This document shows positions 4,270 through 40,903 of a stretch of 40,903 nt of DNA, in pieces. A program made the position numbers and the translations under genes. This DNA is from a virus (lineage: Duplodnaviria > Caudoviricetes), in the IMG/VR virus record IMGVR_UViG_3300032295_001731, positions 1-40,903 of that record; one strand, given 5' to 3'. The notes beneath the pieces are model-generated. The model saw only the letters and a list, made by a program, of their open reading frames with translations, was not told where the DNA came from and ran no database searches. Positions within the stretch are counted from its first letter, which is position 1. The number at the start of each line of letters is the position of its first letter.

Positions 4270-4284
4270 TTTTAGTTATTGTTA

Positions 4285-4292
4285 CAAATTTA
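4285..4292 (-). promoter_or_regulatory. Bacteroidota sigmaA -7 box (TAAATTTG)
   Basis: Matches TAnnTTTG, 15 nt upstream of ATG at 4269. Confidence 0.65.
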
Positions 4293-4320
4293 AGTTTTAT
4301 TTAATTGTCAACTTTTTAGG

Positions 4321-7300
4321 TTACCAGTTCTCTTCTGTTTCAGTACTTTTAAGGTCTTCCTTCATCTCTGGCTCGTATGTAGGTTTTTTATTTCCTGGTG
4401 TTTCTTTTGGAATATAATCCTCTCCAAATATATTTTTAAATATGTAGTCTTTTTTATTTCTTGCTTTAGCATATTCAAAGTAATCCTTCTCGTAACCCAT
4501 AAATGCATCAATAAACGACTTGTTACCTTTATAGTATTCTGCGAAATCTTCAGCTTGCTTAACCAAGTTCTTAACGCCTAAAACTTTAAGAGCATCTTTT
4601 CTTTGCTTAGGAGTCATCTTTCTCCATATTGATGCATTTTCATATAGCTCCATTAATTTAAGGTATTCCTCTTGACTATATGTGAGGTTCTTCTCATCTC
4701 CAATTTCCTCAAGGAATCTTTCTCTTTCTTTAGTATCGATGTCTTTGTTCCAATCATCTTTAGATAAAGCCTCAATAACTGCACCGCCTGTACTCATTAT
4801 TGTATTGAAGAATTGAGTTAATGGAACATTGTTTTTCCATTCATCCCCCCTAGCAGCATTTATGATTCCATCTACAATAAATCCAGGCACTCCAAATCCT
4901 TGTAGTGTAGACTGTACTTGGTCAACAAACAAGTCGTATCCTACTCTTGTTTCTTCATCAAACTCTTGTTCATCATCGTCTTTCTTAAATACAGCATAAC
5001 CTGCATTAGAAATTAAGTTAAATAGAATACTACTAAGAACAGAGTAATAAACTATATCGTAGTAAGCTTGTATTTTCTGTTTATCTGTTGAAGATTCATT
5101 ATTCAATGTTCTGAATCCTTTAACTATTTTTCTAGCACCACCAATTTGTGATGATTTGTAAGAACTAAACATCCTACCTACAGTACTTCTTTGGAAGCTA
5201 GAAACGTAATCTTCTCTAGATGTTTGCTGTGTTTCTTCTACGCCCTCAACGAATTTCTTAAATGCATAGTCTTTAGCTTCAGCTTCACCCATTCCTTGAG
5301 CCAATGCATCTCTATATCTTGCAATGGCATACGATCCACCTCCACCAAGTGGAGACACGTTAGCTAAGAAGTCAGCGTTACCAGCTACAGCCATAGCTAC
5401 TCTAGAAACTTTAGACCACCATTTAGCAGAATTTCCTTTTTTAGATTCATCAAATAATCGCTTTAATTCTAGGTCAAGGTTCTTACCTGTTCTACGTTCT
5501 TTTAAGTACTCACTAAAGAAAACGTCCTTATAGAATTCCCACTCTGCTTTAGTCTTAGGGAATGCGGTTATAATTTGTTTAGGACTAATTCCATCTTCAA
5601 TCCCTTGACCCCAGAAGTTGGTAAATGAAACCAACTGAGTAGGTAATGATTTTAATTTGAATCCAAGAGTTATCAATGAGTTATAATTCATAAACTCATC
5701 CATAACTGCTTCGCCTCTTTTCTTAATAGGTCTTTTACCTGTAAGAATAATTCCTAATTGAGTTTGAAGATCAGACAAATCTTGAGCTGTCATTTTGTCA
5801 AGAATGTATGGTCTGTTTTGTTGGGCAAATAATTGATTTGCAGCCTTAGCTACAGGAATCAAATACTTGGCTCTTTCCATATTTTTGATATAGTCAAAGA
5901 ATATTTCCTCAGCACCCATTGAAGTGTTAAACGCACCTTGATAACCAGTCTTTTGCTTCAAGTTATTTGTCATCGCATTTAACGCCAAGAAGTTATTGTC
6001 AGCATCAAATATATCGCCTTCACTAAATGTGTCATCATCAAAATTAGCATCAGCATAAGCAGGGTAGTAGTAGCCTTCTGGGAATGGCATATTATTTACT
6101 GCTATAAAAGTAGGCTCGTAATCAGATTTGAAGCTTTCGTATTGCTCAACTAAGAAGTTAGCATAGTCTTTTAAATCTTGATTTGACTCAATGTAATCAA
6201 CTAGATCCTGAGCATCTACACCTGATTTCTCAAGTCTACTCATTCCATTCTCTAGTCTTGACATATTGTACAATGATACAAGAACTGAATTAGACACAGG
6301 AACTCCTTGCTTTCTACTTTCTCTTAGTGGATTAATATCAGCATCAGCTGTTAATCTTTTTTGAGCAGCATCTTTACTTCCAAAGATTTCATTTAGACCT
6401 TCAAAATATCTATCTGCTTTTTCCTTGAATGAATTCTCAACATCAACAAAGTAATCTTTAATAGGTTGAGATATATTCTCTTTAATGAACTTAGCTGTCT
6501 TAGGTGCTCCTTTGCCAATTACTTGGAAGTATCCATATATGTTATCAAGTATTCCTGATCTTTTTATGGATTCTTTTAATCTTGTAGCTCTACCTTTCTT
6601 CTCTGAGATTATTCTTTTTTTCTCACTCATGTTTACCTTAGTGTATCCTTTTGCAGGACCAGGTATAGGTTCAGGATCTACATTCTTATTGTATGGGCTA
6701 GAGTTGTAAGAACTCTTATTGTACATCTTACCATCAATAATCACGTATCCACCCTGACCTTCAAAGAAAGTTGAAACAGCTTCGTTATCGCTTAATATAG
6801 CATCAGGCTTTCCAGCTAATTCTTCTAGCATATCGGCAGCATTTCTCATTTTGATATCATCTTGAATTTTCTTCAAATTCTTAAGATCAGCCTTACCTGT
6901 TTCTACGATGCCATCTATAATGTCGCTAACCTCATTAAGTTCTTCCATTGACATTGACTCTATGTCAGATAAAGTGCCTACGAAGTCATAGAATTCTTTC
7001 TGAGCTTCTACTGTAACCTTACCTTTTTTCTTGCCGTCAACTTTAGAATATAAAGTCTTGCTGTTTTTAATTTTGCCAATGACTTCTTTTACTTTTTTCT
7101 TTCTGATTTGCTCATTTTTTCTTTGAACTAATTCAGAAACTTTATCTATTGCCCTATCTAATGTAGCTTCATTTTTAGCTCTATTAACGGCATTAATCAA
7201 ATAGTTCACTTCTGTTCTAGAATACTGCTCCTTAGGAAGCGTATCCTTGATGAATTTTTTGATTTCTTCTTTTATTCCTTGAACGTACTTCACTGCATCT

Positions 7301-22808: not shown

Positions 22809-23536
22809 TATTGAGCGGTTTGTTGAGTTGTTGTATCAGGAGTAGGAACAGATCTATTGGCATAAAGTCTAGGATCAAGTTCACTATCATCTTCTCCATC
22901 GTTAATATTTTCCTTAGGCATTAACATTACAAATCTACCAAGCTGTAGTACCTGCATCATTAACTCTTGAATCATTTCATCCGGCAATGGAATCTCTTCA
23001 TCAAGACTACATAATGTTCGTGGATCTAGAGTTGCTTTAATTGCAATCTCAACATCCTTAACAGGAACACACTCTAAACCAAGTAGATAGATACGGTTAA
23101 CTTTAACCCCATCAATGTGATCACCTATTCTATAAAAATAAGGATTTTTAGCACTAGGTTTTGTATACTCATCCAAGTACAAATGCTGAACGCTTCCAAC
23201 ATTAACACCTTGAAACCACACCTGAGCGAATGCTGGTCCATCACACTTACAAGTATCCTCGTTATATGTGATGTAGACTACACCTGAGTTATTAGGTAAG
23301 TCCATAATTTGCGCAGGAAGATCGATGTACTTTCTTCCTTTTGAATCTGTTTTAACTTCTACACTATTGAATGTAGATGTGAATAAGTCAGTATTGGTAG
23401 CAATCGTCTGCTGTAAACGCATACGGTTAGCTACAACCATTGTCCAATAAAGAAGCTGATTTAACGTGAAGTCAGCATCATCAAAAGCAGAGTTAAAGCT
23501 TTTGTCTAAGTCATATATTACGTATCTATATGTCAT
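22808..23536 (-). CDS. Tail ring / head-tail adaptor protein
   Basis: CSLDEEIPLPDEMIQEL C-terminal pattern; triplet position. Confidence 0.65.
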   Translation of the reverse strand: MTYRYVIYDLDKSFNSAFDDADFTLNQLLYWTMVVANRMRLQQTIATNTDLFTSTFNSVEVKTDSKGRKYIDLPAQIMDLPNNSGVVYITYNEDTCKCDGPAFAQVWFQGVNVGSVQHLYLDEYTKPSAKNPYFYRIGDHIDGVKVNRIYLLGLECVPVKDVEIAIKATLDPRTLCSLDEEIPLPDEMIQELMMQVLQLGRFVMLMPKENINDGEDDSELDPRLYANRSVPTPDTTTQQTAQ

Positions 23537-23537
23537 C

Positions 23538-24296
23538 TTACATTGAACTTAATAGTTGTTGAATATCTTGAGCAGTTACCGAGTAAATGCTTGTTTGGTC
23601 ACCTTGCTTGTATGCAATGTAACTCAATGCTTTGTCAAATAGTAATTGGAACACACTATTTGGAAATTCTATGTTTTGAGATAATGTAGTAATAACCGAT
23701 GGTTTCTTTGCCCAGAATACAGTAACCTTTCCATTAACAGATGATGGTCTGATTTCAATTTCTGCGGCTTTATTACCTATATTTACACCTTGGTAATTAG
23801 CAGGTGCTAGATAAGCATACAACTTAAGTGCATCACATATCTGATTACCGTCATATCCTGCTTCTAATGGATTTGAAGCGTTAGTTGACCATTCCTCTAC
23901 ACTAAGTCTCTTACAAGAGTCTGTAGACGATCTATGAAGTTCATCGCTTAAGAAATAGCTTTGTGTATTATCAGGTGTTGGTACAGGTGGATAACCTGAA
24001 ATCTTTTCTGTTTTAGGATTAGCATATACTCCAAGAATAGTCCATACTTCACTTGGAAATACATTTAGGGATACCCTGGAGGTGTTAGTAGTTTTAAACA
24101 CCCCCGAGTATGCTAGATCCCTAAAGAACTCTTCGCCTAATTTATCTTGACCGTAAGCTGCATTCACTACGTTTGTCAACCATTTAATCGCTGCGTTAAT
24201 TGCAGGGATATAGTCTAACTGATCTAAATAGTGATCAGAGTTCTCCGCATCTAGTGCAAAGGCCATTTGATTCCGTAGTTCCTGAGCTAAGATCAT
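23538..24296 (-). CDS. Tail ring / head-tail adaptor protein
   Basis: AINAA N-terminal helix and KKPS...IEFPNSVFQLLFDKA C-terminal pattern (P22 gp4/tubular A-like). Confidence 0.7.
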   Translation of the reverse strand: MILAQELRNQMAFALDAENSDHYLDQLDYIPAINAAIKWLTNVVNAAYGQDKLGEEFFRDLAYSGVFKTTNTSRVSLNVFPSEVWTILGVYANPKTEKISGYPPVPTPDNTQSYFLSDELHRSSTDSCKRLSVEEWSTNASNPLEAGYDGNQICDALKLYAYLAPANYQGVNIGNKAAEIEIRPSSVNGKVTVFWAKKPSVITTLSQNIEFPNSVFQLLFDKALSYIAYKQGDQTSIYSVTAQDIQQLLSSM

Positions 24297-24298
24297 AA

Positions 24299-25084
24299 TT
24301 ATCCGATAGTTTTTTCTGTTATAACACGACCAGTGTTTTTATCCATTACACTGCCTTTAAGCGAGCCATACAATAAACGATCCTGTTGTGCCTTAGCTCT
24401 TTCAGCTGTTAGCTCAACTAGTTGTCTACGCATAGCTTCTGGGCTTTGAGTCACAGACAATCCTTCTTGCTGAATGCGAGCAATAACTTGCATATCAGAC
24501 AATCTTGAAATAGACTGTTGTGCTTCCATCATTTTTTGTGCCCAAGTAGAATCTACAGCCATAGCTGATGTCATATTCTCAAAGAATGCAATTCCGTACT
24601 GACTGTGATTACGCATATAATCTAATTCAGACTGAGATTGAATCTTAACAGAAGATACAGATACTACTTGAACATCACGACCACGCTTACGCTTTGTGCG
24701 AACAAGTGGCTTAAATTTGATAGCTCCATTTGGTGGAGTTGACTCGATACCACGTTTTTTATCTCCGTGAATAGAGAAGTTAAGTGAGAACGCAAAGAAT
24801 ACTACAGGTTGCTCCAACCAATCGTCTTGAAGATCTTGAATGTAATCTAGATCAGCATCAATATCTTTCTGAGCTACTGTGGTTTTGATTTTGTTGATTT
24901 GATTATTGAATCGGTCTTCCAATTCCTTCATCATTTTCTGAACAAGAGAAACAGGTAGAACTTCTTCTTTCTTTTCTTCAACTACCGGTGTTTCTTCTTT
25001 TTTCACTTCTTCTGCGTTAACCTCCTGAAATACTGTTTCTTCAGCTTTAGGAGTAACGTCTTTTTCTACTTTTTTTACTGCCAT
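24299..25084 (-). CDS. Conserved hypothetical protein downstream of capsid
   Basis: 261-aa ORF, acidic N-terminus, helical; virion module. Confidence 0.55.
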   Translation of the reverse strand: MAVKKVEKDVTPKAEETVFQEVNAEEVKKEETPVVEEKKEEVLPVSLVQKMMKELEDRFNNQINKIKTTVAQKDIDADLDYIQDLQDDWLEQPVVFFAFSLNFSIHGDKKRGIESTPPNGAIKFKPLVRTKRKRGRDVQVVSVSSVKIQSQSELDYMRNHSQYGIAFFENMTSAMAVDSTWAQKMMEAQQSISRLSDMQVIARIQQEGLSVTQSPEAMRRQLVELTAERAKAQQDRLLYGSLKGSVMDKNTGRVITEKTIG

Positions 25085-25149: not shown

Positions 25150-26388
25150 TTATGGGTTTACGTTAAGGTAAGCACAAGCAAGTGGGTTGTGGAATTTCAC
25201 ACCCATGTTGCAGTCTACCCAAACATCTCCATAACGCTTAGGAACACCATCCTCTAATTTGAGGGTGTCACCTGAACGCTCACCCCAAAGTTGTGTACGC
25301 TTGATGTTTTTCATATCAAGGATAACAATACGATTCTCGAAAGAACCTGGGAATGATGCTTTATCTTCGAAACGCTTGAATGGAACAAGAACGATACGAG
25401 AAGAACCAAGGTTGATCTCTTTCAAGTTCAATAAAGCGATATCATCGTTAGGAGCGTAACGAGTAAGCTCTTCTTTGTAAGCTAAAGAAAGCATACGGTG
25501 CATACGTGGAGTCATGAACGCCATACGAGCTTGACCATAGTCACCATATTCAGAAGACAATACCATATCTTCGAATGCGTCAACTAACGTGTTAGAGTTA
25601 GCAACAGCATTTGGAGAACCAGCTTCCAACATAGAAGTGTAAACACCACCAGTTGTTTTAGCAGGAGTACCATCAGCAGTGATGATTTCACCTTTTTGAC
25701 CTGTCCAGAATGCGTTAGAAAGGTCGATACGGTGTTGGTTGAACATTGCGTTACGTTCCATTTCAAGGAAGTTAGAGGTAGTACCCATAGTCTTCAACTT
25801 GTGAAGCTCAACTTCAGAGTAACGGATTGCTTTGTTGAACAACTGAATGTAGTTAGCACGCTCAATTGTAGAAGCACGGAAGTACTGAGCGAAACCGTCA
25901 GAACCATCGTGGTCAACAGAAGATACGTTAGCGAGGATATCGTCAGCTGCAACAGCAGGAAGAGTATCGCCATTGTAAGGAGAAACAGTTACAGTCAACA
26001 AAGATGTGTCAACACCAACAACGCTACCTTTCTGACCGTTAGGGTAAGAAATGATTGTGTTAGTAGAGATGTTATCAGTTGAAGTAACAGAAATTGTTTG
26101 AGTAGTTGGGTAAGAAACAGCAGCAGATGCAGCAGTAGCTACAAGCGGCTCACGTTGGTAACCCATCTCTTGGTAGAAGAATTCGTCAGAGTTAACTTGC
26201 TCTGCCGGTACCATGTTTAACAATTTCAAATCCATGAACTGCTGAGGAGCAGCATCAAAGATCGCACGGTTAGTCAACTTTTGTACGAGCAACGAAATGT
26301 CGTGTCCGTATAAAGCAGCATACTCAGATCCTACGGAGTTGTAGTTCTGGTTAGTGAACTTTACGTTCGGTTCATTATATAAAGCCAT
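25150..26388 (-). CDS. Major capsid protein (HK97 fold, SU10/DUF5309-like)
   Basis: NYIQLFNKAIRYS...HRIDLSNAFWTG...TTGGV pattern; strong high-expression codon bias; follows portal and scaffold. Confidence 0.85.
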   Translation of the reverse strand: MALYNEPNVKFTNQNYNSVGSEYAALYGHDISLLVQKLTNRAIFDAAPQQFMDLKLLNMVPAEQVNSDEFFYQEMGYQREPLVATAASAAVSYPTTQTISVTSTDNISTNTIISYPNGQKGSVVGVDTSLLTVTVSPYNGDTLPAVAADDILANVSSVDHDGSDGFAQYFRASTIERANYIQLFNKAIRYSEVELHKLKTMGTTSNFLEMERNAMFNQHRIDLSNAFWTGQKGEIITADGTPAKTTGGVYTSMLEAGSPNAVANSNTLVDAFEDMVLSSEYGDYGQARMAFMTPRMHRMLSLAYKEELTRYAPNDDIALLNLKEINLGSSRIVLVPFKRFEDKASFPGSFENRIVILDMKNIKRTQLWGERSGDTLKLEDGVPKRYGDVWVDCNMGVKFHNPLACAYLNVNP

Positions 26389-30401: not shown

Positions 30402-30410
30402 AAAAGTAAT

Positions 30411-30445
30411 AAAAAAATAGGGTAGACAATTTAATGCCTACCCTA
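30411..30445 (-). terminator. Rho-independent terminator after the 270-aa structural gene
   Basis: TAGGGTAG (30418-30425) / CTACCCTA (30438-30445) stem plus T7 on minus strand. Confidence 0.75.
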
Positions 30446-30453
30446 CAAAGATA
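30446..30453 (-). promoter_or_regulatory. Bacteroidota -7 box (TATCTTTG)
   Basis: TAnnTTTG abutting the terminator stem, upstream of 30401. Confidence 0.55.
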
Positions 30454-31553: not shown

Positions 31554-31585
31554 TTTGGCGGATAGAAAAAAGGTTCGTAGGTTTG
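31554..31585 (+). promoter_or_regulatory. Complete Bacteroidota sigmaA promoter (TTTG-N20-TAGGTTTG)
   Basis: TTTG 31554-31557, TAGGTTTG 31578-31585. Confidence 0.75.
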
Positions 31586-31631
31586 TATTGAGATTAGCAA
31601 CTCAGCATAGTTTTAGAGATAAAAGGTTTTC

Positions 31632-31672
31632 AACCCCCTGTTCCCTGCTAATCTTACGGGGGGTTTCTTTTT
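31632..31672 (+). terminator. Terminator/attenuator hairpin in leader of plus-strand island
   Basis: AACCCCCTG / CGGGGGGTT stem with T-rich tail ending just before ATG 31676. Confidence 0.65.
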
Positions 31673-31675
31673 GTT

Positions 31676-33633: not shown

Positions 33634-35694
33634 TTAGTTCAGTATTTTTAAAACCTTACCTGTCCTCTTATCTACTTTAGCTAACTTCATTCTGTAGTTA
33701 GTCTCTTTACATTGAACATATTTCGTAATTACGTGCGTTTCCTTGTCTTGTGACCTGATATTCTCTGGCTCATACCTAGCGTGTGACTGTGCATTAATAT
33801 ATGCAAAGCCAATAGCAAAGATGGCGTCATCATAATCGTATCTCGTATCGGCAGCTTGGTATCTAGTTTGGCGATGACTTGTTGAACTCTTCAAATCCTT
33901 CTCGACAAATGTCTTCAGCTGCTCCCAGATCCATGGAACGTCTATATTGATGCCGTAGGCATCAATCATTTCCTCAATTTTTGCAATAATTCTTGGAGCT
34001 GTGTTTGCTTTGTTGGAAATGCCGAACCATTTCCCACCATAAGTTTGGAAATATTCAGGCAACTGCGTGTTTGCGGTGAATTTATGCTTAAATCCGTGTA
34101 TCTCTTGGAAGTCAACGTGCATATCACCGATGTTATTCTCAACAAGTTCCTTTACACCACCTCTTCTTTGCTGATCGTAGTACAAACTTTGCAATAATAC
34201 CTGTAGATATGTAAATTTGAATTTGCGATCACGGTGAAATACCACAGAAGACACTGTATTTGTCAGCGCATCCCATATGGCACTACACATCATGGAGTGA
34301 CCTGTCTCAGAGTTGATGGGGTCAGTCCCTTGATACCAGCGATTCTTCCATATTTCGTTCTCAGGTGGATGGTGAACTACCATTGCTGTGGTGGATATGT
34401 CTTCTCTTCCTGACGTTGGGATCCATCTCGCACCTGTAATCCTATATTCAGTGATTAGATCAGGTGTTGGTTGGGTCATATCCATGATAGGTTCGAAGTA
34501 TCCGTACTCTATCGGTGTATCCTTTCCGTATATACTACTTAATCTTTCGTTACAATAATGAATCGGAACGAGCGTTCTTGCTTTTCGCAGGAACATATCG
34601 TCAATTGTGATAGGATAATGTTGGTGGAACTGAACTTTAGCGACCTCTCCTTTCTTGGTTCCTTCCAATGCAAGGTATGCTTTACGTTCGTTATTGATGT
34701 GCTCGTCTGTGACCCCTCTTCGTGCATAGGCATTGAAGAATAAAGGTATGATTCCATACTCGTAGTTTTTTTCCTTCCACTGACTAAGAGCCATTTTGAA
34801 CTCTGCTTCGAATACAGAACCCCCTTTATCCATTTCTCCCCCTGTTCCCCATGCTAAGAACTGTTGCTGCATGGTCATTTTGCCAGTCTCAGGGTTGTAC
34901 TTAAATAAGGCAGGTCGACCTTCACGCATCATCTCACCGAATATATCAAATAGACCGATCTCATCGATGAATACCGCTGATGGAGATCCACCATTGATAG
35001 CATCTACTTGAGGGCTGTCTACTTGGAAGCGAGATGCACCACCTTCGTCACGACCTTTCTTTTCTCCTTTCTTGTCAAATGACATCACCTGATCAGTCCA
35101 GTTCTTAACGTCTTGCGCTAGGTAGTCCGGAATCTTGGTGTATGTCCATTTAACTTTATCCCTAAAGATCTCGACACCTTTGTCTTTAGAGTGAGTAACA
35201 AATTTAATGAAATATGATTTGTTTAAGTTTACACGTTTCATCCCTGCGAGACACATCGTAGTTGTAAAACCAATCTGACGTGCCTTACCAATCATCAATG
35301 AGTAACCGCAGTCGAATAAAAACAGTAGGACTTTCTGTGCATCCCACGCCTGATAGCGCAGCATACCATTCTCGGCTTTATCTTCTTTGATCCAACCGTA
35401 CTTGTTACAGAAGTATAGTGTGTTGTCGTTGCACTTTTGGATTTCTTTTGCGAGCCAGTTGTATTGATCCTCTTCGTTCTCAAAGTCTGTTAAGAGGGTA
35501 TCATCTTGTAGCCAAATCTTAGCTTGTTCGCAGTATAAATCGAAGGGTTTATGATAAATCTTGTTTTGCCATCCACTGTTGATGGAATCAATCCAATCTA
35601 CAAATGGCTTAGGATAATCAAACTCAGCGTGAGATGGTTTCCATTCAGATGTCAATATTTCCCTTCGAACTACACCGTCTTTTGATTGACGCAT
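33634..35694 (-). CDS. terL: Terminase large subunit
   Basis: Walker A-like GKARQIGFTT, Walker B VFIDEIG, GTGG coupling motif, nuclease GTDP...ENN...YDDAIFA. Confidence 0.92.
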   Translation of the reverse strand: MRQSKDGVVRREILTSEWKPSHAEFDYPKPFVDWIDSINSGWQNKIYHKPFDLYCEQAKIWLQDDTLLTDFENEEDQYNWLAKEIQKCNDNTLYFCNKYGWIKEDKAENGMLRYQAWDAQKVLLFLFDCGYSLMIGKARQIGFTTTMCLAGMKRVNLNKSYFIKFVTHSKDKGVEIFRDKVKWTYTKIPDYLAQDVKNWTDQVMSFDKKGEKKGRDEGGASRFQVDSPQVDAINGGSPSAVFIDEIGLFDIFGEMMREGRPALFKYNPETGKMTMQQQFLAWGTGGEMDKGGSVFEAEFKMALSQWKEKNYEYGIIPLFFNAYARRGVTDEHINNERKAYLALEGTKKGEVAKVQFHQHYPITIDDMFLRKARTLVPIHYCNERLSSIYGKDTPIEYGYFEPIMDMTQPTPDLITEYRITGARWIPTSGREDISTTAMVVHHPPENEIWKNRWYQGTDPINSETGHSMMCSAIWDALTNTVSSVVFHRDRKFKFTYLQVLLQSLYYDQQRRGGVKELVENNIGDMHVDFQEIHGFKHKFTANTQLPEYFQTYGGKWFGISNKANTAPRIIAKIEEMIDAYGINIDVPWIWEQLKTFVEKDLKSSTSHRQTRYQAADTRYDYDDAIFAIGFAYINAQSHARYEPENIRSQDKETHVITKYVQCKETNYRMKLAKVDKRTGKVLKILN

Positions 35695-35707
35695 ATAGTC
35701 GTTGGAA

Positions 35708-35842
35708 TTAATAGTTCTTCATTCCTTTTTTCATCGCAGGCTTAGTGGATTTACCTTTAGGCATCTTCTCCATTTTAGCTTCTCCTTTGGCCATAGCTCT
35801 TTCGATAGCTTTGCCAATTTTCTTTTTCATCATTGGTTTCAT
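35708..35842 (-). CDS. 44-aa Met/Lys-rich basic peptide (not in ORF track)
   Basis: MKPMMKKKIGKAIERAMAKGEAKMEKMPKGKSTKPAMKKGMKNY; fills the gap before terL. Confidence 0.7.
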   Translation of the reverse strand: MKPMMKKKIGKAIERAMAKGEAKMEKMPKGKSTKPAMKKGMKNY

Positions 35843-35856
35843 GTCAAGTAAATTAA

Positions 35857-36036
35857 TTAATCACAATATTTTTTATCCTTGGTATTCTTATACATTAGTT
35901 TAAATCCAGGTTTACAAGCGCACGACATATCCTCCTTAAGAGTATTAGGTGACGCAGGTCTGCCTTCTACACGGCCCTGACCAAGGTAGCTTCCACTTTT
36001 TTTAGGGTTTGATGCCCAGTACTTATCTCCTTTCAT
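35857..36036 (-). CDS. 59-aa basic hypothetical protein (not in ORF track)
   Basis: MKGDKYWASNPKKSGSYLGQGRVEGRPASPNTLKEDMSCACKPGFKLMYKNTKDKKYCD; preceded by -7 box. Confidence 0.65.
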   Translation of the reverse strand: MKGDKYWASNPKKSGSYLGQGRVEGRPASPNTLKEDMSCACKPGFKLMYKNTKDKKYCD

Positions 36037-36052
36037 ATCAATGTATTTGTCA

Positions 36053-36060
36053 CAAATATA
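36053..36060 (-). promoter_or_regulatory. Bacteroidota -7 box (TATATTTG) for the terminase operon
   Basis: TAnnTTTG 16 nt upstream of ATG 36036. Confidence 0.65.
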
Positions 36061-36074
36061 TGAATAATTGTTAT

Positions 36075-36155
36075 AAAAGAAATAAGGGGGCTATTATACC
36101 CCCTTACATCAAAACAAACAAAACAAAAAACAAGAGTACCTTAAACAACAAAGGT
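36075..36155 (-). ncRNA. Putative ~80-nt small RNA (sRNA-A)
   Basis: Own -7 box at 36160-36167, 5' hairpin ACCTT/AAGGT with TGTTGTTT loop, TTGTTT-rich linker, terminator TAAGGGGG/CCCCCTTA plus T-tail; no ORF. Confidence 0.55.
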
Positions 36156-36159
36156 CTTA

Positions 36160-36167
36160 CAAATATA
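36160..36167 (-). promoter_or_regulatory. Bacteroidota -7 box (TATATTTG) upstream of putative sRNA-A
   Basis: TAnnTTTG immediately after the phosphoesterase stop. Confidence 0.6.
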
Positions 36168-36174
36168 ATAATTT

Positions 36175-37065
36175 TTAGAATGGAAACTTAATACTGTCAA
36201 TTAATTTTTCAGTTCTATCAGTTACACTGTCTCCATTAGTCCCTCTTACCCTTCTAGTATCTATGGTTAGAATCCTTCCACCGATAGGTTTAACAGGTGC
36301 GCCACGCTCAACGTGCCATCCTTTTGATCCATCACCGTACTCTTCTTTGTAAGTACCGGTAATCATCATATGGATTTGCTTATGTCTATTGATCCACCCG
36401 TCCGCAGCATGGTGATCAACAGTATCACGCACTACATTGGTACATTTATTCTCGTGGATATGTCCCATGCTGAATACCTCAAAGTCCTCATACATTTCTA
36501 GGGCACGAGTAAGATTGATCTCACCACGTGTAACCATACCACCGCCTCCACTTCCATGGAAATATTTGATCTTGGTAGAGATTCTTCTATTTGTTCTCAC
36601 ATCCTGGTTAACGATCAACCATCCGCCATACCCTCCGGTCTGAACATTCGAATGATTTTTGTAGTTAAGTAGGTCAACGAATCTCTGTAGCAAATCTGTT
36701 TCCTGACGTTTCAGCACCGCAGTCTCGTGGTTACCGTATCCGATAACTGTGATTAAGTGAGCATAGGGCGAAAAAAAATCCACCGCAGTTTCTACGATGG
36801 AATCTAGGTATCTAATATTGTTGTGCTCAGGTCTGATGTCAGATTTAGTACCCCTCGGGTCCCATTTCCCCTGCATAAGGCAGAAGGTATCTCCGTTGAA
36901 CATCATCGGAATTGATTCTTTTAAGCAGTAATCTAGGTGTCTTCTTAGCAGATCCCAATCGCATTTAGGATTGTCCCAGTGGATATCGCTGAACATAGCA
37001 ATCTGTACTTTGGTTCCTTGAATCTTTAATTCGTGGATGTTCTTCGAGTGTCTAATTAATTGCAT
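36175..37065 (-). CDS. Calcineurin-like metallophosphoesterase
   Basis: SDIH, NGD, GNHE, HG, GHIH motifs in order. Confidence 0.9.
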   Translation of the reverse strand: MQLIRHSKNIHELKIQGTKVQIAMFSDIHWDNPKCDWDLLRRHLDYCLKESIPMMFNGDTFCLMQGKWDPRGTKSDIRPEHNNIRYLDSIVETAVDFFSPYAHLITVIGYGNHETAVLKRQETDLLQRFVDLLNYKNHSNVQTGGYGGWLIVNQDVRTNRRISTKIKYFHGSGGGGMVTRGEINLTRALEMYEDFEVFSMGHIHENKCTNVVRDTVDHHAADGWINRHKQIHMMITGTYKEEYGDGSKGWHVERGAPVKPIGGRILTIDTRRVRGTNGDSVTDRTEKLIDSIKFPF

Positions 37066-37607
37066 TACTCTAGTGTTGGTGAATATTCTATATCTAATTC
37101 TTCATTCCTCTTTGGCATACGGTCAAACTCCTTTACGCAGTAAAACATTTTTTTGATTGTACCCTTGTAGAAATAAATGGGGTTGACCATGTAGGTTCTT
37201 CTATTTTTTTCGGATGTAAATCTAATAATATCTTTGGCACAAAGTTCTTTGATGCTGTTCATAACGAACTTCATATTCATGTCCGACAACTGTTGGATAT
37301 CACGCAAACTGTAATTTTTGATTAAATTACCGTAGTTCATCTGCTGACACATCAGCCTAAGAATCTTATTTGACGATGGCTTAATTTCGTTCATTATGGA
37401 TAACGACTCGGTAAACGTAATCATATACCTCATCTTCTTCCTGCGTAGCAGGTTCGCAATAACTTCATCAGCCTGCGAGTTATACCCCTCCGCAATCTGT
37501 ACGAATTCTCCCTTTTGGTTTTTATAGTAAAGATCGAGTCCCTTTACTTTCTGATTGATTACCCTATCCGCTTCTAGCAGAATTAAGTCGAATACTATGT
37601 TGTTCAT
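37065..37607 (-). CDS. RepL-like winged-HTH DNA-binding protein
   Basis: HTH followed by YMVNPIYFYKG, a Firmicute-plasmid RepL-type signature also seen in crAss-like phages. Confidence 0.7.
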   Translation of the reverse strand: MNNIVFDLILLEADRVINQKVKGLDLYYKNQKGEFVQIAEGYNSQADEVIANLLRRKKMRYMITFTESLSIMNEIKPSSNKILRLMCQQMNYGNLIKNYSLRDIQQLSDMNMKFVMNSIKELCAKDIIRFTSEKNRRTYMVNPIYFYKGTIKKMFYCVKEFDRMPKRNEELDIEYSPTLE

Positions 37608-37924
37608 TTTTTGTCTTTGGATCGGATGTTCCGATCTACGATAATCGTGTCTACGTTAATTTTAATTTTCTTCAAATGCGATATGGTTTGCTTATGGCGT
37701 GTGTGCTCATAGAAGATCAATCCATTTAGAGCCCTCCCGAATTCAGTAATGCTCATATCTCCTTTCATCTTGTTACAATCACCACAGGCAGGTACCTTAT
37801 TTGCATTACTTAACTTACCGCCACGACTTTTAGGTATCAGATGATCCACAGTTCTACTATAGTCATCCAACGTGGTCTTACAATAAGCACAGACACTTAA
37901 GTCTACTCCATCCTTGGTAATCAT
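37604..37924 (-). CDS. HNH endonuclease
   Basis: CAYC...VDHLIPKSRGG...N.VPAC..CNKMKG. Confidence 0.9.
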   Translation of the reverse strand: MITKDGVDLSVCAYCKTTLDDYSRTVDHLIPKSRGGKLSNANKVPACGDCNKMKGDMSITEFGRALNGLIFYEHTRHKQTISHLKKIKINVDTIIVDRNIRSKDKK

Positions 37925-38157
37925 TTACTCAACATTAAAATGTCAATATCCTCTATTGTCTCCTCAATAGTAAAATCACCAACAATAGTTCTTACGGTGG
38001 TATGCATTTCATCATCAGCACTATTCCAGGCAATGATATCACTTACCTTAACTCTAAAGTCATCAAACTCATTAACACTAGGCAAACCTAAATTAGCCAA
38101 TTTATCATTAGTCTTAAAGCTACATCGAGTCAACAAAAATCCATTTACTACTTTCAT
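37921..38157 (-). CDS. Small hypothetical protein, first gene of the minus-strand arm
   Basis: 78 aa, ATGA coupling to HNH gene. Confidence 0.65.
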   Translation of the reverse strand: MKVVNGFLLTRCSFKTNDKLANLGLPSVNEFDDFRVKVSDIIAWNSADDEMHTTVRTIVGDFTIEETIEDIDILMLSK

Positions 38158-38161
38158 TCTA

Positions 38162-38169
38162 CAAATATA
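38162..38169 (-). promoter_or_regulatory. Bacteroidota -7 box (TATATTTG), probably giving a leaderless mRNA
   Basis: Only 4 nt between box and ATG 38157. Confidence 0.6.
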
Positions 38170-38255
38170 TAAATTATATTTAAGAAAACAAGCACTTTGT
38201 ATACACTTTTGTCAGAACAACTTGTTACCACTTTTTACTACATTAACTTATTAGT

Positions 38256-38268
38256 AATCAACTACTTA
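38256..38268 (+). promoter_or_regulatory. IHF consensus site
   Basis: AATCAACTACTTA matches WATCAANNNNTTR. Confidence 0.5.
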
Positions 38269-38505
38269 AAAATATTCTCTATATACTGTTTATCTCTACG
38301 TCATTCTAACAGAATATCATTGATACCTTGAATATATAATCTGATGTGTACGAAGTGAACATCTGATTGTATACCGAAAGGATAGGATCAGCACCATAAT
38401 CATTTATCCCTACATCGAATGTACCCTATGCCTAGTACTACTACCCCTCCCCCTTTTATAAGGCTATACCCTTACTAACTTACTTTAATATCAGGCTATC
38501 CCCTG

Positions 38506-38561
38506 AAAAGTTTCTCTGTTTTTTAGGGTTTGTTGCAAAAAGTATCTCTGTTTTTTAGGGT
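38506..38561. repeat. 24-bp direct repeat x2
   Basis: AAAAGT(T/A)TCTCTGTTTTTTAGGGT at 38506 and 38538. Confidence 0.9.
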
Positions 38562-38622
38562 CTTTCCCACCCGTTGGTATCCCCTCCCCTTCCTCGAGGG
38601 AAAGTCGAAACCCAAATTCCTT

Positions 38623-38641
38623 ATTTAGAATCATTCTAAAC
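38623..38641. promoter_or_regulatory. Fur-box-like palindrome 1
   Basis: ATTTAGAATCATTCTAAAC. Confidence 0.55.
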
Positions 38642-38649
38642 TATCTTTA

Positions 38650-38748
38650 CTTAGTGTCATGTTGACACTTACTCAGACCTTAGTGTCATTTATACACTAA
38701 CCTTAGTGTCATGTTGACCTTTAGTACTTAGTGTCATTATTACACTAA
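38650..38748. repeat. Four copies of CTTAGTGTCAT, each the left arm of an imperfect palindrome
   Basis: Copies at 38650, 38679, 38702, 38727. Confidence 0.9.
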
Positions 38749-38877
38749 CTCATTTTATTTGCTTAGAATCTAGTCATTCCCCTGATTAATTCCTAATCAT
38801 TACCACTTTCATTTGTGCATACAAAAATAAATTGACTTTTGCAAGTTTTTACACAATTATTTTCAATTCAAAGCCTT

Positions 38878-38896
38878 ATTTATAATCATTCTAAAT
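38878..38896. promoter_or_regulatory. Fur-box-like palindrome 2
   Basis: ATTTATAATCATTCTAAAT. Confidence 0.55.
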
Positions 38897-38927
38897 TTCA
38901 AATATTTTTGCATTTTTTTATAATTTT

Positions 38928-38959
38928 CTTTGTCATATTATATAATATAGTTATATTTG
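38928..38959 (+). promoter_or_regulatory. Complete Bacteroidota sigmaA early promoter (TTTG-N20-TATATTTG)
   Basis: TTTG 38928-38931, TATATTTG 38952-38959, AT-rich upstream. Confidence 0.8.
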
Positions 38960-39190
38960 TATAGATAAAAAACACAACGTTATGAATACAAGTTAACACA
39001 TACAATACAGGATAGGCCGAAAGGCCACAACGAAAAAAAAATAATTCATTTTCGTACTGGGAAAAGAATGCTCATTCAGTACAGGTGGAATAACAGACCT
39101 CAAAAACGTTATAAAACTAGCTTAGGGAATTATTATGCCCGTTTCTTAAGTTAGATTATTAAAGGGCTATTTATTTTAATTTACCACACT

Positions 39191-39700
39191 ATGAAAACTT
39201 TATCTTTTAAATTCGAACAATTAAACACAATTAAGAAGCAAGGTATTGAAACCTTAGAAACAATTAGCTTCGAAACAAACGGAAACCTTTGTATAGATGC
39301 AAAGGCCGATAACTTGCAAAGAACAATAAATTTTTGTTCTGAGTTATTCAATTTGCTAGATGTAATGAAGCAAAGCGGAAAAGCCCTAGTTATTAATGGG
39401 TGCAAATTTCACCCTAATAAAGATTTCAATTTGTACGCTATTATTGACGGCAAAGAGCATTTTTTAGAATATTCTAGTATTATTCAATTCGATGCCGTAG
39501 CGTTCAAAGTTAGTGCACCAACATTGAGAACGAACAAAGACGGGCAAAACGTATTAAATACCAATTCAAGAAAGGCCTTTGCTTTGCAAGTATGGCAATT
39601 ATTACAGGGTGCGGAGGGCAAAACTCAATTAATGCATAAAACTAACTTATCGGCTATTGACGCAAAAGTGAACGCATCTAGTCAATTCTTACTAGCTTAA
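39191..39700 (+). CDS. Early hypothetical protein
   Basis: 169-aa ORF, first after the early promoter. Confidence 0.75.
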   Translation: MKTLSFKFEQLNTIKKQGIETLETISFETNGNLCIDAKADNLQRTINFCSELFNLLDVMKQSGKALVINGCKFHPNKDFNLYAIIDGKEHFLEYSSIIQFDAVAFKVSAPTLRTNKDGQNVLNTNSRKAFALQVWQLLQGAEGKTQLMHKTNLSAIDAKVNASSQFLLA

Positions 39701-39726
39701 TTAATTAACGTCTTAAAATTTGCGTC

Positions 39727-39963
39727 ATGAAATTATATTCAAAACAAGGTAACTATACAAGTACTTTAATTAGCGGGCTAGGTATTCAATCAAGTGAAGC
39801 AAAGATAGTACACAAACAAAAGCAAAGTACAAACGGGTCTAAGCGTTCACGAATGGAATCTAAAAAAGACGGTGTATTTAATAGCTTTACAAGTTTTGAG
39901 AAACGAGACGCAAACAATGAAGCAAGAAAAAAGAAATTCGAACTATTAAGACGCAAGAAATAA
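39727..39963 (+). CDS. Early basic hypothetical protein
   Basis: 78-aa ORF followed by terminator. Confidence 0.65.
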   Translation: MKLYSKQGNYTSTLISGLGIQSSEAKIVHKQKQSTNGSKRSRMESKKDGVFNSFTSFEKRDANNEARKKKFELLRRKK

Positions 39964-39981
39964 CCACTACAAACCTAAGCG

Positions 39982-40008
39982 AGGGGAGCAGAAATGTTCC
40001 CCTTTTTT
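39982..40008 (+). terminator. Rho-independent terminator
   Basis: AGGGGAGCA-GAAA-TGTTCCCCT plus T-run. Confidence 0.8.
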
Positions 40009-40081
40009 AGTAAGGCTCACTATCAACGCCAAAGGTTATTACGCCTTTCAATTTTAAAAATCTATTTAATTTACCACAATT

Positions 40082-40255
40082 ATGAAATTCATTTTCGCAC
40101 TTATGCTCACGTCATTAATCATGGCTGTGTCATTATTAATCTATTCAGTTATTCATAACACTAATATTGAAGCAACAATATTCAGTGCAATATTATGCGT
40201 TGCGTCAGCATCAGGTGCTGCGTATTCAGCAAAGATATTAGACGAAAGAAATTAA
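40082..40255 (+). CDS. 57-aa two-helix membrane protein (not in ORF track)
   Basis: MKFIFALMLTSLIMAVSLLIYSVIHNTNIEATIFSAILCVASASGAAYSAKILDERN; TTACCACAA leader motif. Confidence 0.7.
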   Translation: MKFIFALMLTSLIMAVSLLIYSVIHNTNIEATIFSAILCVASASGAAYSAKILDERN

Positions 40256-40279
40256 TTCACAATCAAAACCTACCACAAA

Positions 40280-40501
40280 ATGAGAGTACAAATTAACAAG
40301 GTTTGGAGCGCAGAAGAACTACGCCCGAGCAACAAGACAAATGTTTTCTTATGCAATCCTGGAGAAATCAAAGGACAATGGATAAGCATAAGCAAGTACG
40401 TAAAACTCAAGGAATTAGTACGCAAGTACACAAACATTCGTGAGGTATTATACGAAGATCAACAAGACTATACTATTCACTACTTAATTGAGAAGCCATG
40501 A
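40280..40501 (+). CDS. Early hypothetical protein
   Basis: 73-aa ORF with CTACCACAA leader. Confidence 0.7.
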   Translation: MRVQINKVWSAEELRPSNKTNVFLCNPGEIKGQWISISKYVKLKELVRKYTNIREVLYEDQQDYTIHYLIEKP

Positions 40502-40587
40502 CTTTAGGAGAACTCATATACCTATCATTAACGCTAAATGTAGTGTTATTCATCAAATACATTCAGTACAAACCAAAAAAGAAATAA
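40498..40587 (+). CDS. 29-aa single-helix membrane peptide (not in ORF track)
   Basis: MTLGELIYLSLTLNVVLFIKYIQYKPKKK; ATGA overlap. Confidence 0.55.
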   Translation: MTLGELIYLSLTLNVVLFIKYIQYKPKKK

Positions 40588-40589
40588 CA

Positions 40590-40647
40590 TTCTGTTGTGG
40601 TAGATAGAGAAGAAAGGCGTATCGTAATTGGTACGCCTATTTCTTTT
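40590..40647 (+). ncRNA. Putative 3'-UTR regulatory RNA (sRNA-B) ending in a terminator
   Basis: TCTGT/ATAGA stem with TGTGGTAG loop, then AGGCGTATC/GGTACGCCT terminator and T-tail. Confidence 0.45.
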
Positions 40648-40677
40648 ACCCAATATAACCTTTAAACAACAAGAACA

Positions 40678-40869
40678 ATGAAAACAGTAGTTATAAGTTT
40701 TAAAAAAATTTCAAATATGAGTGAAAAATTAGAACGTGCATTTTTCAATTGGTTAAGAGAAAATAACATCCCATATACAGCAAGTGATTTCATTTCCCAT
40801 AACATCTTTGTTGAAGAACGTGATGTATCCAAGATAAAAAAAATATGGCCTGAAATTATTAAACTTTAA
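40678..40869 (+). CDS. Early hypothetical protein
   Basis: 63-aa ORF with AAACAACAA leader. Confidence 0.65.
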   Translation: MKTVVISFKKISNMSEKLERAFFNWLRENNIPYTASDFISHNIFVEERDVSKIKKIWPEIIKL

Positions 40870-40872
40870 ACA

Positions 40873-40903
40873 ATGAAGAAGCTATTTAATTTTATTAAAA
40901 AAA
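40873..40903 (+). CDS. Start of next early gene, truncated
   Basis: TAAACAATG then MKKLFNFIKK to window end. Confidence 0.45.
   Translation, partial: MKKLFNFIKK

Follow-up and report, generated by a model that had tools for sequence, protein, structure and literature searches.

A probable anti-start small RNA between the phosphoesterase and terminase genes of a phage that likely infects Bacteroidota

Antisense and other small RNAs, such as c4 of phage P1 and CI of phage P4, tune the phage's own gene expression. Lambda OOP and aQ, 24B_1 of Phi24B and VpdS of VP882 are further phage antisense or small RNAs, according to the sections of a review that we drew on (PMC12197685). The RNAs described there act as cis antisense, address one or a few named targets or depend on Hfq, and mostly serve lysis-lysogeny control; those sections mention neither Bacteroidota nor an RNA aimed at a leader common to a block of early genes (PMC12197685). 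The phage-sRNA literature that we covered, which included few subscription papers, describes no anti-leader RNA in a Bacteroidota phage. In lambdoid phages, the short pR'-tR' transcript (StxS) arises from a promoter with a close terminator upstream of late genes and can be regulatory, as stated in the part of PMC7547250 used here. Early-gene shut-off by phages in hosts without Shine-Dalgarno pairing has been little studied.

Among host RNAs, FopS of Bacteroides thetaiotaomicron has a sigma-A-type promoter, a single-stranded 5' part and a Rho-independent terminator, and it represses translation by pairing close to the start codon. FopS forms a 14-copy host family (12-15 copies per host genome) that is bound by RbpB and aimed at host susC mRNAs; one phage carries a copy of the FopS sequence, and FopS has been deposited in Rfam (all from the excerpt of PMC11697453 available to us). 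GibS, in the available excerpt of PMC7366714, is an A/U-rich, largely unstructured RNA of ~145 nt with an extended seed over the translation start region. Here we describe a phage locus, positions 36075-36167, that is probably an anti-start small RNA. Like FopS as excerpted, it has a single-stranded 5' part and a terminator, and pairing at start codons is predicted; its promoter consists of a conserved -7 box with no -33 TTG. Unlike FopS, it is phage-borne, present in one copy in the window and predicted to target the phage's own genes via a shared leader. It has no Rfam match, where the presence of a FopS model in the searched copy is taken from the deposit statement. Like GibS, it is A/U-rich and mostly unstructured with a predicted seed across the start region, but GibS is longer, has host metabolic targets and shows no sequence match to it. 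By analogy with these partial descriptions, the unit appears to resemble FopS and GibS in mode and to be a member of neither. It likewise resembles the reviewed phage RNAs OOP, aQ, 24B_1 and VpdS in that these are phage-made RNAs that tune their own phage's genes (PMC12197685, same sections).

The promoter-terminator unit and its setting

The window, which is the whole stretch of DNA that was analysed, is a 40.9-kb linear phage record; the most complete relatives are ~65 kb. The minus strand carries the majority of the genes, among them those for portal, terminase and tail, and a plus-strand arm of small genes begins at 39191 and is cut off by the window end. Shine-Dalgarno runs are missing from the start regions of the window, and TAnnTTTG boxes precede many of these regions, which likely fits a Bacteroidota host when compared with the accessible parts of PMC6847099 and PMC9723704. 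The phage is likely a freshwater-type, Bacteroidota-infecting one. Ten genome-bin matches were found, four of them labelled Flavobacterium or Flavobacteriaceae (distant matches, in the 57-65% range), and a 97% match falls within a Polynucleobacter bin, where it is probably misbinned. The window terminase reaches 23-34% identity at best with annotated terminases (tblastn), the capsid-sized protein at 25150-26388 matched none of 50,697 phage records, and Pfam returned nothing for 10 window proteins. The features of the locus are as follows.

36175..37065, minus: metallophosphoesterase-like gene (PHROG 7339, E 1e-21; tblastn to annotated metallophosphoesterases)
36160..36167, minus: Bacteroidota primary-sigma -7 box TAnnTTTG, here TATATTTG, without a -33 TTG
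36075..36155, minus: predicted small RNA of 81 nt, its +1 predicted from box spacing at the hairpin's first A
36138..36155, minus: 5' hairpin ACCTT/AAGGT with a 5-bp stem and loop TGTTGTTT / UGUUGUUU (from the fold; clade-specific)
36141..36151, minus: predicted 11-nt seed, by complementarity to the TTAAACAACAA leader
36108..36137, minus: single-stranded U/G-rich linker with conserved core TTGTTTTTTGTTT (from relatives' sequences)
36075..36107, minus: intrinsic terminator, G/C stem then U-tract (fold, -18.5 kcal/mol)
36053..36060, minus: second -7 box, TATATTTG, upstream of a 59-aa ORF and the terminase; kept in relatives with the U/G linker
33634..35694, minus: terminase large subunit (PHROG 5989, E 2e-9; tblastn to annotated terminases)

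The earlier note had read box, hairpin, linker, terminator and second box in this order on the minus strand, and each was located there. The start-site box of Bacteroidota spans -12 to -5 in the available text of PMC9723704, which places +1 on the hairpin's first base, 36155, so that the RNA would be 81 nt long. Among hairpin-clade copies, the differences amount to four bases, at exactly -4 to -1. The predicted fold consists of a single-stranded 5' region and an intrinsic terminator, with an extra 5-bp 5' hairpin in the window's clade. An 89-nt minus-strand segment folds at -23.4 kcal/mol (z -4.5), which none of 200 shuffles equalled; the plus strand folds similarly (z -4.6), so the z score is a property of the stems and does not tell the strands apart.

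A small protein from either strand of the unit was ruled out, because the opposite-strand frames that cross it, a 60-codon TTG-started ORF (36009-36191) and a 43-codon ATG ORF, are not kept in relatives. Rfam gave nothing for the unit at E up to 5 (35600-40903) and nothing at gathering score in the whole window; its lone match, a snoRNA at E 4.9, lies inside the phosphoesterase gene and was rejected as chance. In a related locus, L031, a DUF805b motif at 6074-6106 (minus) did reach the Rfam gathering score.

The order of promoter, ~80 nt, terminator and packaging genes recalls the lambdoid pR'-tR' layout described in the available part of PMC7547250, and the unit could by this likeness be an attenuator that gates the terminase operon until antitermination, with the short RNA as a by-product. 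We consider this very unlikely. The terminase operon can be served by the second promoter box, which lies directly past the terminator; the fold shows no pairing between the terminator and any 5' segment; and no antiterminator family was matched by PHROG among the 39 window proteins of this incomplete genome. Furthermore, in G006-G009 the same tail or unit closes the late block, ahead of presumed early genes.

Other intergenic features were observed in the window. At 38952-38997 (plus), a promoter with -33 and -7 elements leads into an A/C-rich leader that holds a four-codon minigene. Four imperfect 28-nt repeats with core CTTAGTGTCAT (38648-38752) and a 24-nt repeat pair (38506-38561) lie in divergent intergenic DNA and are possible origin or regulator sites. 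At 30410-30453 (minus), a promoter box with a terminator hairpin immediately after it lies upstream of a 187-aa gene, an arrangement conserved in G001-G004, G010, G012 and G013.

Conservation after the phosphoesterase gene

Conservation was assessed in the DNA downstream of the phosphoesterase gene in the best 80 of 530 related loci. A box, as TATATTTG, TATCTTTG or TAACTTTG, and a terminator follow the gene in 31/80 relatives, which bears out the claim of a stand-alone promoter-terminator unit. The two are separated by the U/G linker in 21 relatives (two of them with the hairpin), by a shorter U/G stretch in six and by other sequence in four. Another 30/80 have the tail and terminator without an intact box, and 19/80 have nothing of the unit. 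The unit travels with the 3' end of the phosphoesterase gene, and it is a real, discrete, conserved and non-coding one.

An unlikely alternative is that the locus is merely the 3' end of the phosphoesterase operon, in which the box is a chance or vestigial match, the linker is what is left of an inverted gene start, and the hairpin copied the recombination-prone junction by accident, in inverted form. TAnnTTTG is indeed common, with 69 matches in the window versus 50 expected, and the pattern on its own is weak evidence; the 30 relatives that lack an intact box, the near-identical tract that forms the back of a real gene start in L235/L243, and the recent hairpin of a single lineage also fit this explanation. 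However, the linker core is retained in all 21 of the closest relatives that have box, linker and terminator, despite 41-61% identity at 4-fold synonymous phosphoesterase sites between the window and hairpin-less copies. Among relatives, terminator stem and loop sequences vary and some are replaced, with stem and U-tract retained. The box is also retained, with its variation falling at free positions, and the hairpin's first base coincides exactly with the predicted +1. Such tracts are absent at other terminators: the linker is 88% U+G, versus 25-62% ahead of the window's four other terminators.

The hairpin occurs only in the window and its near-identical phages L001, L002, L184/L211, L231, L237, L239, L240 and L244. 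Its carriers form one clade of the phosphoesterase tree (100/100; three rows tested, with a bootstrap that is not fully settled). Gain of the hairpin within that clade would be the simplest reading, and the tree leaves the direction of change undecided. An exact 18-mer search returned eight viral matches, three in true relatives and five by chance elsewhere; G016 and G017 were left out of the genome set because their matches were chance ones in other contexts. A linker pattern search of metagenomes gave 15 matches, of which 11 were this unit and four unrelated.

Predicted pairing with early leaders

Direct observation covers the parts of the unit (box, hairpin, linker and terminator), how they are conserved and how they complement leaders. 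From these we infer a mechanism that we favour with modest confidence, namely an anti-start RNA that acts in trans on early genes of the same phage and combines a broad U/G linker with a clade-specific loop seed. Host sigma-A polymerase would initiate at 36155 and end near 36075; the same 3' end could come from read-through of the phosphoesterase operon. The U/G-rich linker would pair broadly with A/C-rich leaders, UUG reading CAA or, by wobble, AUG. The clade's added 5' hairpin would display UGUUGUUU in its loop, open and pair over 10-12 nt with the TAAACAA(CAA)GAACAATG leader, which is common to a block of small variable genes. Pairing over about -16 to +10 would block initiation, because Bacteroidota ribosomes need open A-rich leaders and not Shine-Dalgarno pairing, and would likely lower early-gene translation. 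RNA that accumulates later in infection would damp early genes. This timing is the weakest step, being read only from a box without a -33 TTG (absent at 19-nt spacing), as at the boxes upstream of structural genes; the element is present at the 38952 and 38162 promoters. If the mechanism holds, leader motifs of Bacteroidota phages would be regulatory addresses as well as translation enhancers.

Genes were called with a simple purpose-made script and presumed to be early by strand and position: on the other strand from the structural genes or, for relatives of 30 kb, in the block after the phosphoesterase. Three targets are predicted in the window.

40659..40680, plus: gene 40678 leader and start, with an exact 11-nt complement at 40662-40672
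40277..40289, plus: gene 40280 start codon, in a 13-bp helix with two G-U pairs
40864..40875, plus: weaker target by complementarity, the leader of gene 40873, which runs off the window

As the earlier note had stated, the 11-mer at 36141-36151 matches 40662-40672, upstream of ATG 40678, as an exact complement. No second site in the window complements all 11 nt exactly. Of 1000 dinucleotide shuffles, 12 had an exact complement of at least 11 nt to one of the eight plus-strand leaders. By cofold, the 40678 region ranks second of 41 window start regions (-15.0 kcal/mol) and gene 40280, paired with RNA bases 36127-36139, ranks first (-19.5 kcal/mol), so that the two best are both in the early arm. 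In the G001 ortholog of gene 40280, a changed second codon breaks the 13-bp helix. The match that had been placed before ATG 40873, TTAAACAA, is complementary, but it reaches into that ATG by one base, the A, and gene 40678 ends with the TAA that it contains. In G001, a gene with the same first residues as gene 40873 has an 11-nt exact complement.

The claim that pairing favours early leaders beyond shuffles held in the twin phage and not in the window alone. With only eight plus-strand starts to set against 33 on the minus strand, the window gave no significant difference (p=0.45 and 0.52). G001, a 97%-identical twin with more of the early arm, provides 33 early and 27 late start regions. There, exact complements of at least 10 nt occur in 7/33 presumed early versus 0/27 late leaders, a count of seven that 4/1000 shuffles reach. 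Helix energies are lower for early than for late starts (p=4e-4) and than for coding background (p=2e-4), and cofold medians are -13.2 versus -7.6 kcal/mol (p=9e-5). The early-late gap exceeds that of 30/30 shuffles, which reproduce about half of it, and the unit ranks 2 of ~996 peaks when all 35-nt windows of G001 are scanned.

The hairpin segment scores z -4.7 against early and -0.2 against late G001 leaders, and the linker alone is no better than its own shuffles (z -1.1 in G001, -0.9 to -1.7 in six relatives), which shows that the specific G001 signal comes from the hairpin and not from the linker. Across the group it is the U/G linker that is conserved, and its match to leaders is mainly compositional. 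The loop as a leader address found support in G001; it comes, however, from one near-identical clade in which it is invariant, and the hairpin was picked after the leader match had been seen. AAACAA, expected at early starts, is present in 13/33 early versus 1/27 late G001 leaders (p=9e-4) and is enriched in G002, G003 and G010 as well, but G004, G005, G012-G015 and G019 showed either no enrichment or none of significance.

The compositional linker match bears on a further explanation, which we consider improbable: that the RNA is real but binds a protein as a decoy, or acts broadly on leaders in mRNAs of the host or of co-infecting phages, with the phage's own early genes not its targets. What is conserved is a U/G tract of low complexity, whose pairing depends little on base order; the unrelated phages G006-G008 also have the junction leader that the hairpin matches; and Bacteroides sRNAs of similar build bind the protein RbpB in the part of that literature available to us. 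Yet the corresponding segments of other lineages (G010, G009, G006/G007) carry specific anti-start sequence that fits their own genome, which agrees better with an RNA aimed at own early genes.

In G001, the predicted targets of the hairpin form a block of seven small genes with the common TAAACAA(CAA)GAACAATG leader, and most of the seven early leaders with an exact complement of at least 10 nt belong to this block. Junction-type leaders number seven in G001 versus three in G002, one in G003, one in G018 and four in G004, the latter four being hairpin-less. The joint presence of hairpin and junction-leader block in one lineage is a coincidence consistent with rewiring and not tested covariation; on this basis the unit may be a case of recent rewiring within anti-start RNAs. 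Blocks of small variable genes with a shared TAAACAACAAGAACAATG junction were observed at G001 4272-5662 and G004 23454-25065 and in the unrelated phages G006, G007 and G008. A block of this type appears to begin with genes 40678 and 40873 of the window.

Anti-start elements in other lineages

Scored against own early starts, the RNAs gave z values of -2.4 in G001, -1.0 in G002, -0.7 in G003, -1.7 in G019, -1.2 in G004, -5.4 in G010 (unit at another site), -3.1 in G009, -2.9 in G006 and -3.3 in G007. All nine are negative and five lie beyond -2, with near-nil pairing in three of the nine lineages (G003, G002 and G004). Genome-wide, the units rank 4/1483 in G010, 4/704 in G009, 12/696 in G007, 19/683 in G006, 36/1323 in G002 and 79/657 in G008; those of G003 and G004 are not among the top 400 peaks. 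Leader specificity is imperfect: the hairpin scores equally on two unrelated phages with the same junction, G006 and G007 (z -4.9, -4.4), and G010 is a better fit for the G009 RNA than G009 itself. G021-G024 were used for motif counts only.

Box-less tails of distant phages carry CAT followed by U/G-rich bases in 11/11 distinct sequences (32 loci), an anti-start geometry in which the segment literally mirrors these phages' own start codons. In L052/L054, one concerted change from ACACGC to ACACAC affects both the tail and the leaders of two orthologous genes. The G010 unit mirrors its own AAAGTAA leader (7/46 versus 0/47).

Two additional conserved elements of the anti-start type, directed at TACCA leaders, are present in the phage group. 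They make it unlikely that the class arose by chance, without proving this member of it. As a tentative extension, the group may hold a network of anti-start RNAs, each addressed to an early-class leader tag, in which the unit at 36075-36167 would serve CAA/AUG leaders and the two others TACCA leaders, and in which the window's clade would recently have added a loop against the cassette-block junction. If so, the rewired loop would control any gene that enters the mobile cassette block, matching genes of co-infecting phages included.

The second element was observed in the window at 40579-40647 (plus), as a tract with TGTTGTGGTAGATAG directly ahead of an early-arm terminator. It complements TACCACA just upstream of ATGs 39191, 40082 and 40280, in duplexes of -15 to -18 kcal/mol versus -8.6 for 40678. 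It is nearly invariant in 7/7 close genomes, in which TACCA leaders number 25 early and three late, and absent from six more distant ones. The third element, in a part of the genome absent from the window, consists of a box, leader and terminator ahead of a presumed replication block and carries ATCATGGTAGATAT, mirroring TATCTACCATG starts. It occurs in the early arm of G002, G003, G018, G019 and G004 (e.g. L011 ~743, minus), with variants in G014 and G015, and scores z -4.1 to -6.7 against early starts in five genomes.

G012 and G013 gave no anti-start signal ahead of any terminator tested. Strong scores in G003, G018 and G004 and one in G014 were not counted in this terminator scan, because they resemble the backs of real gene starts. 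An ~80-nt box-to-terminator unit immediately upstream of the exonuclease operon at window 31578-31675 (plus) is conserved in relatives and shows no anti-start signal (z -0.4 in G001). A box-to-terminator unit also adjoins the exonuclease operon at ~57555-57612 of G010 (minus; L172-L175), where tandem TTTTCAT modules mirror the AAAACAAAGTAA-ATG starts of G010; no case in the set is clearer. Hammerhead-like sequences were found neither in the window nor, by Rfam gathering score, in L001, L011 and L015. Sequences that fit the layout of a complete hammerhead ribozyme lie on the minus strand ~25 nt upstream of early start codons, with sites in the early arm at ~7579 in G001, at ~12509 and ~12982 in G002, and in G003, G018, G019 and G020.
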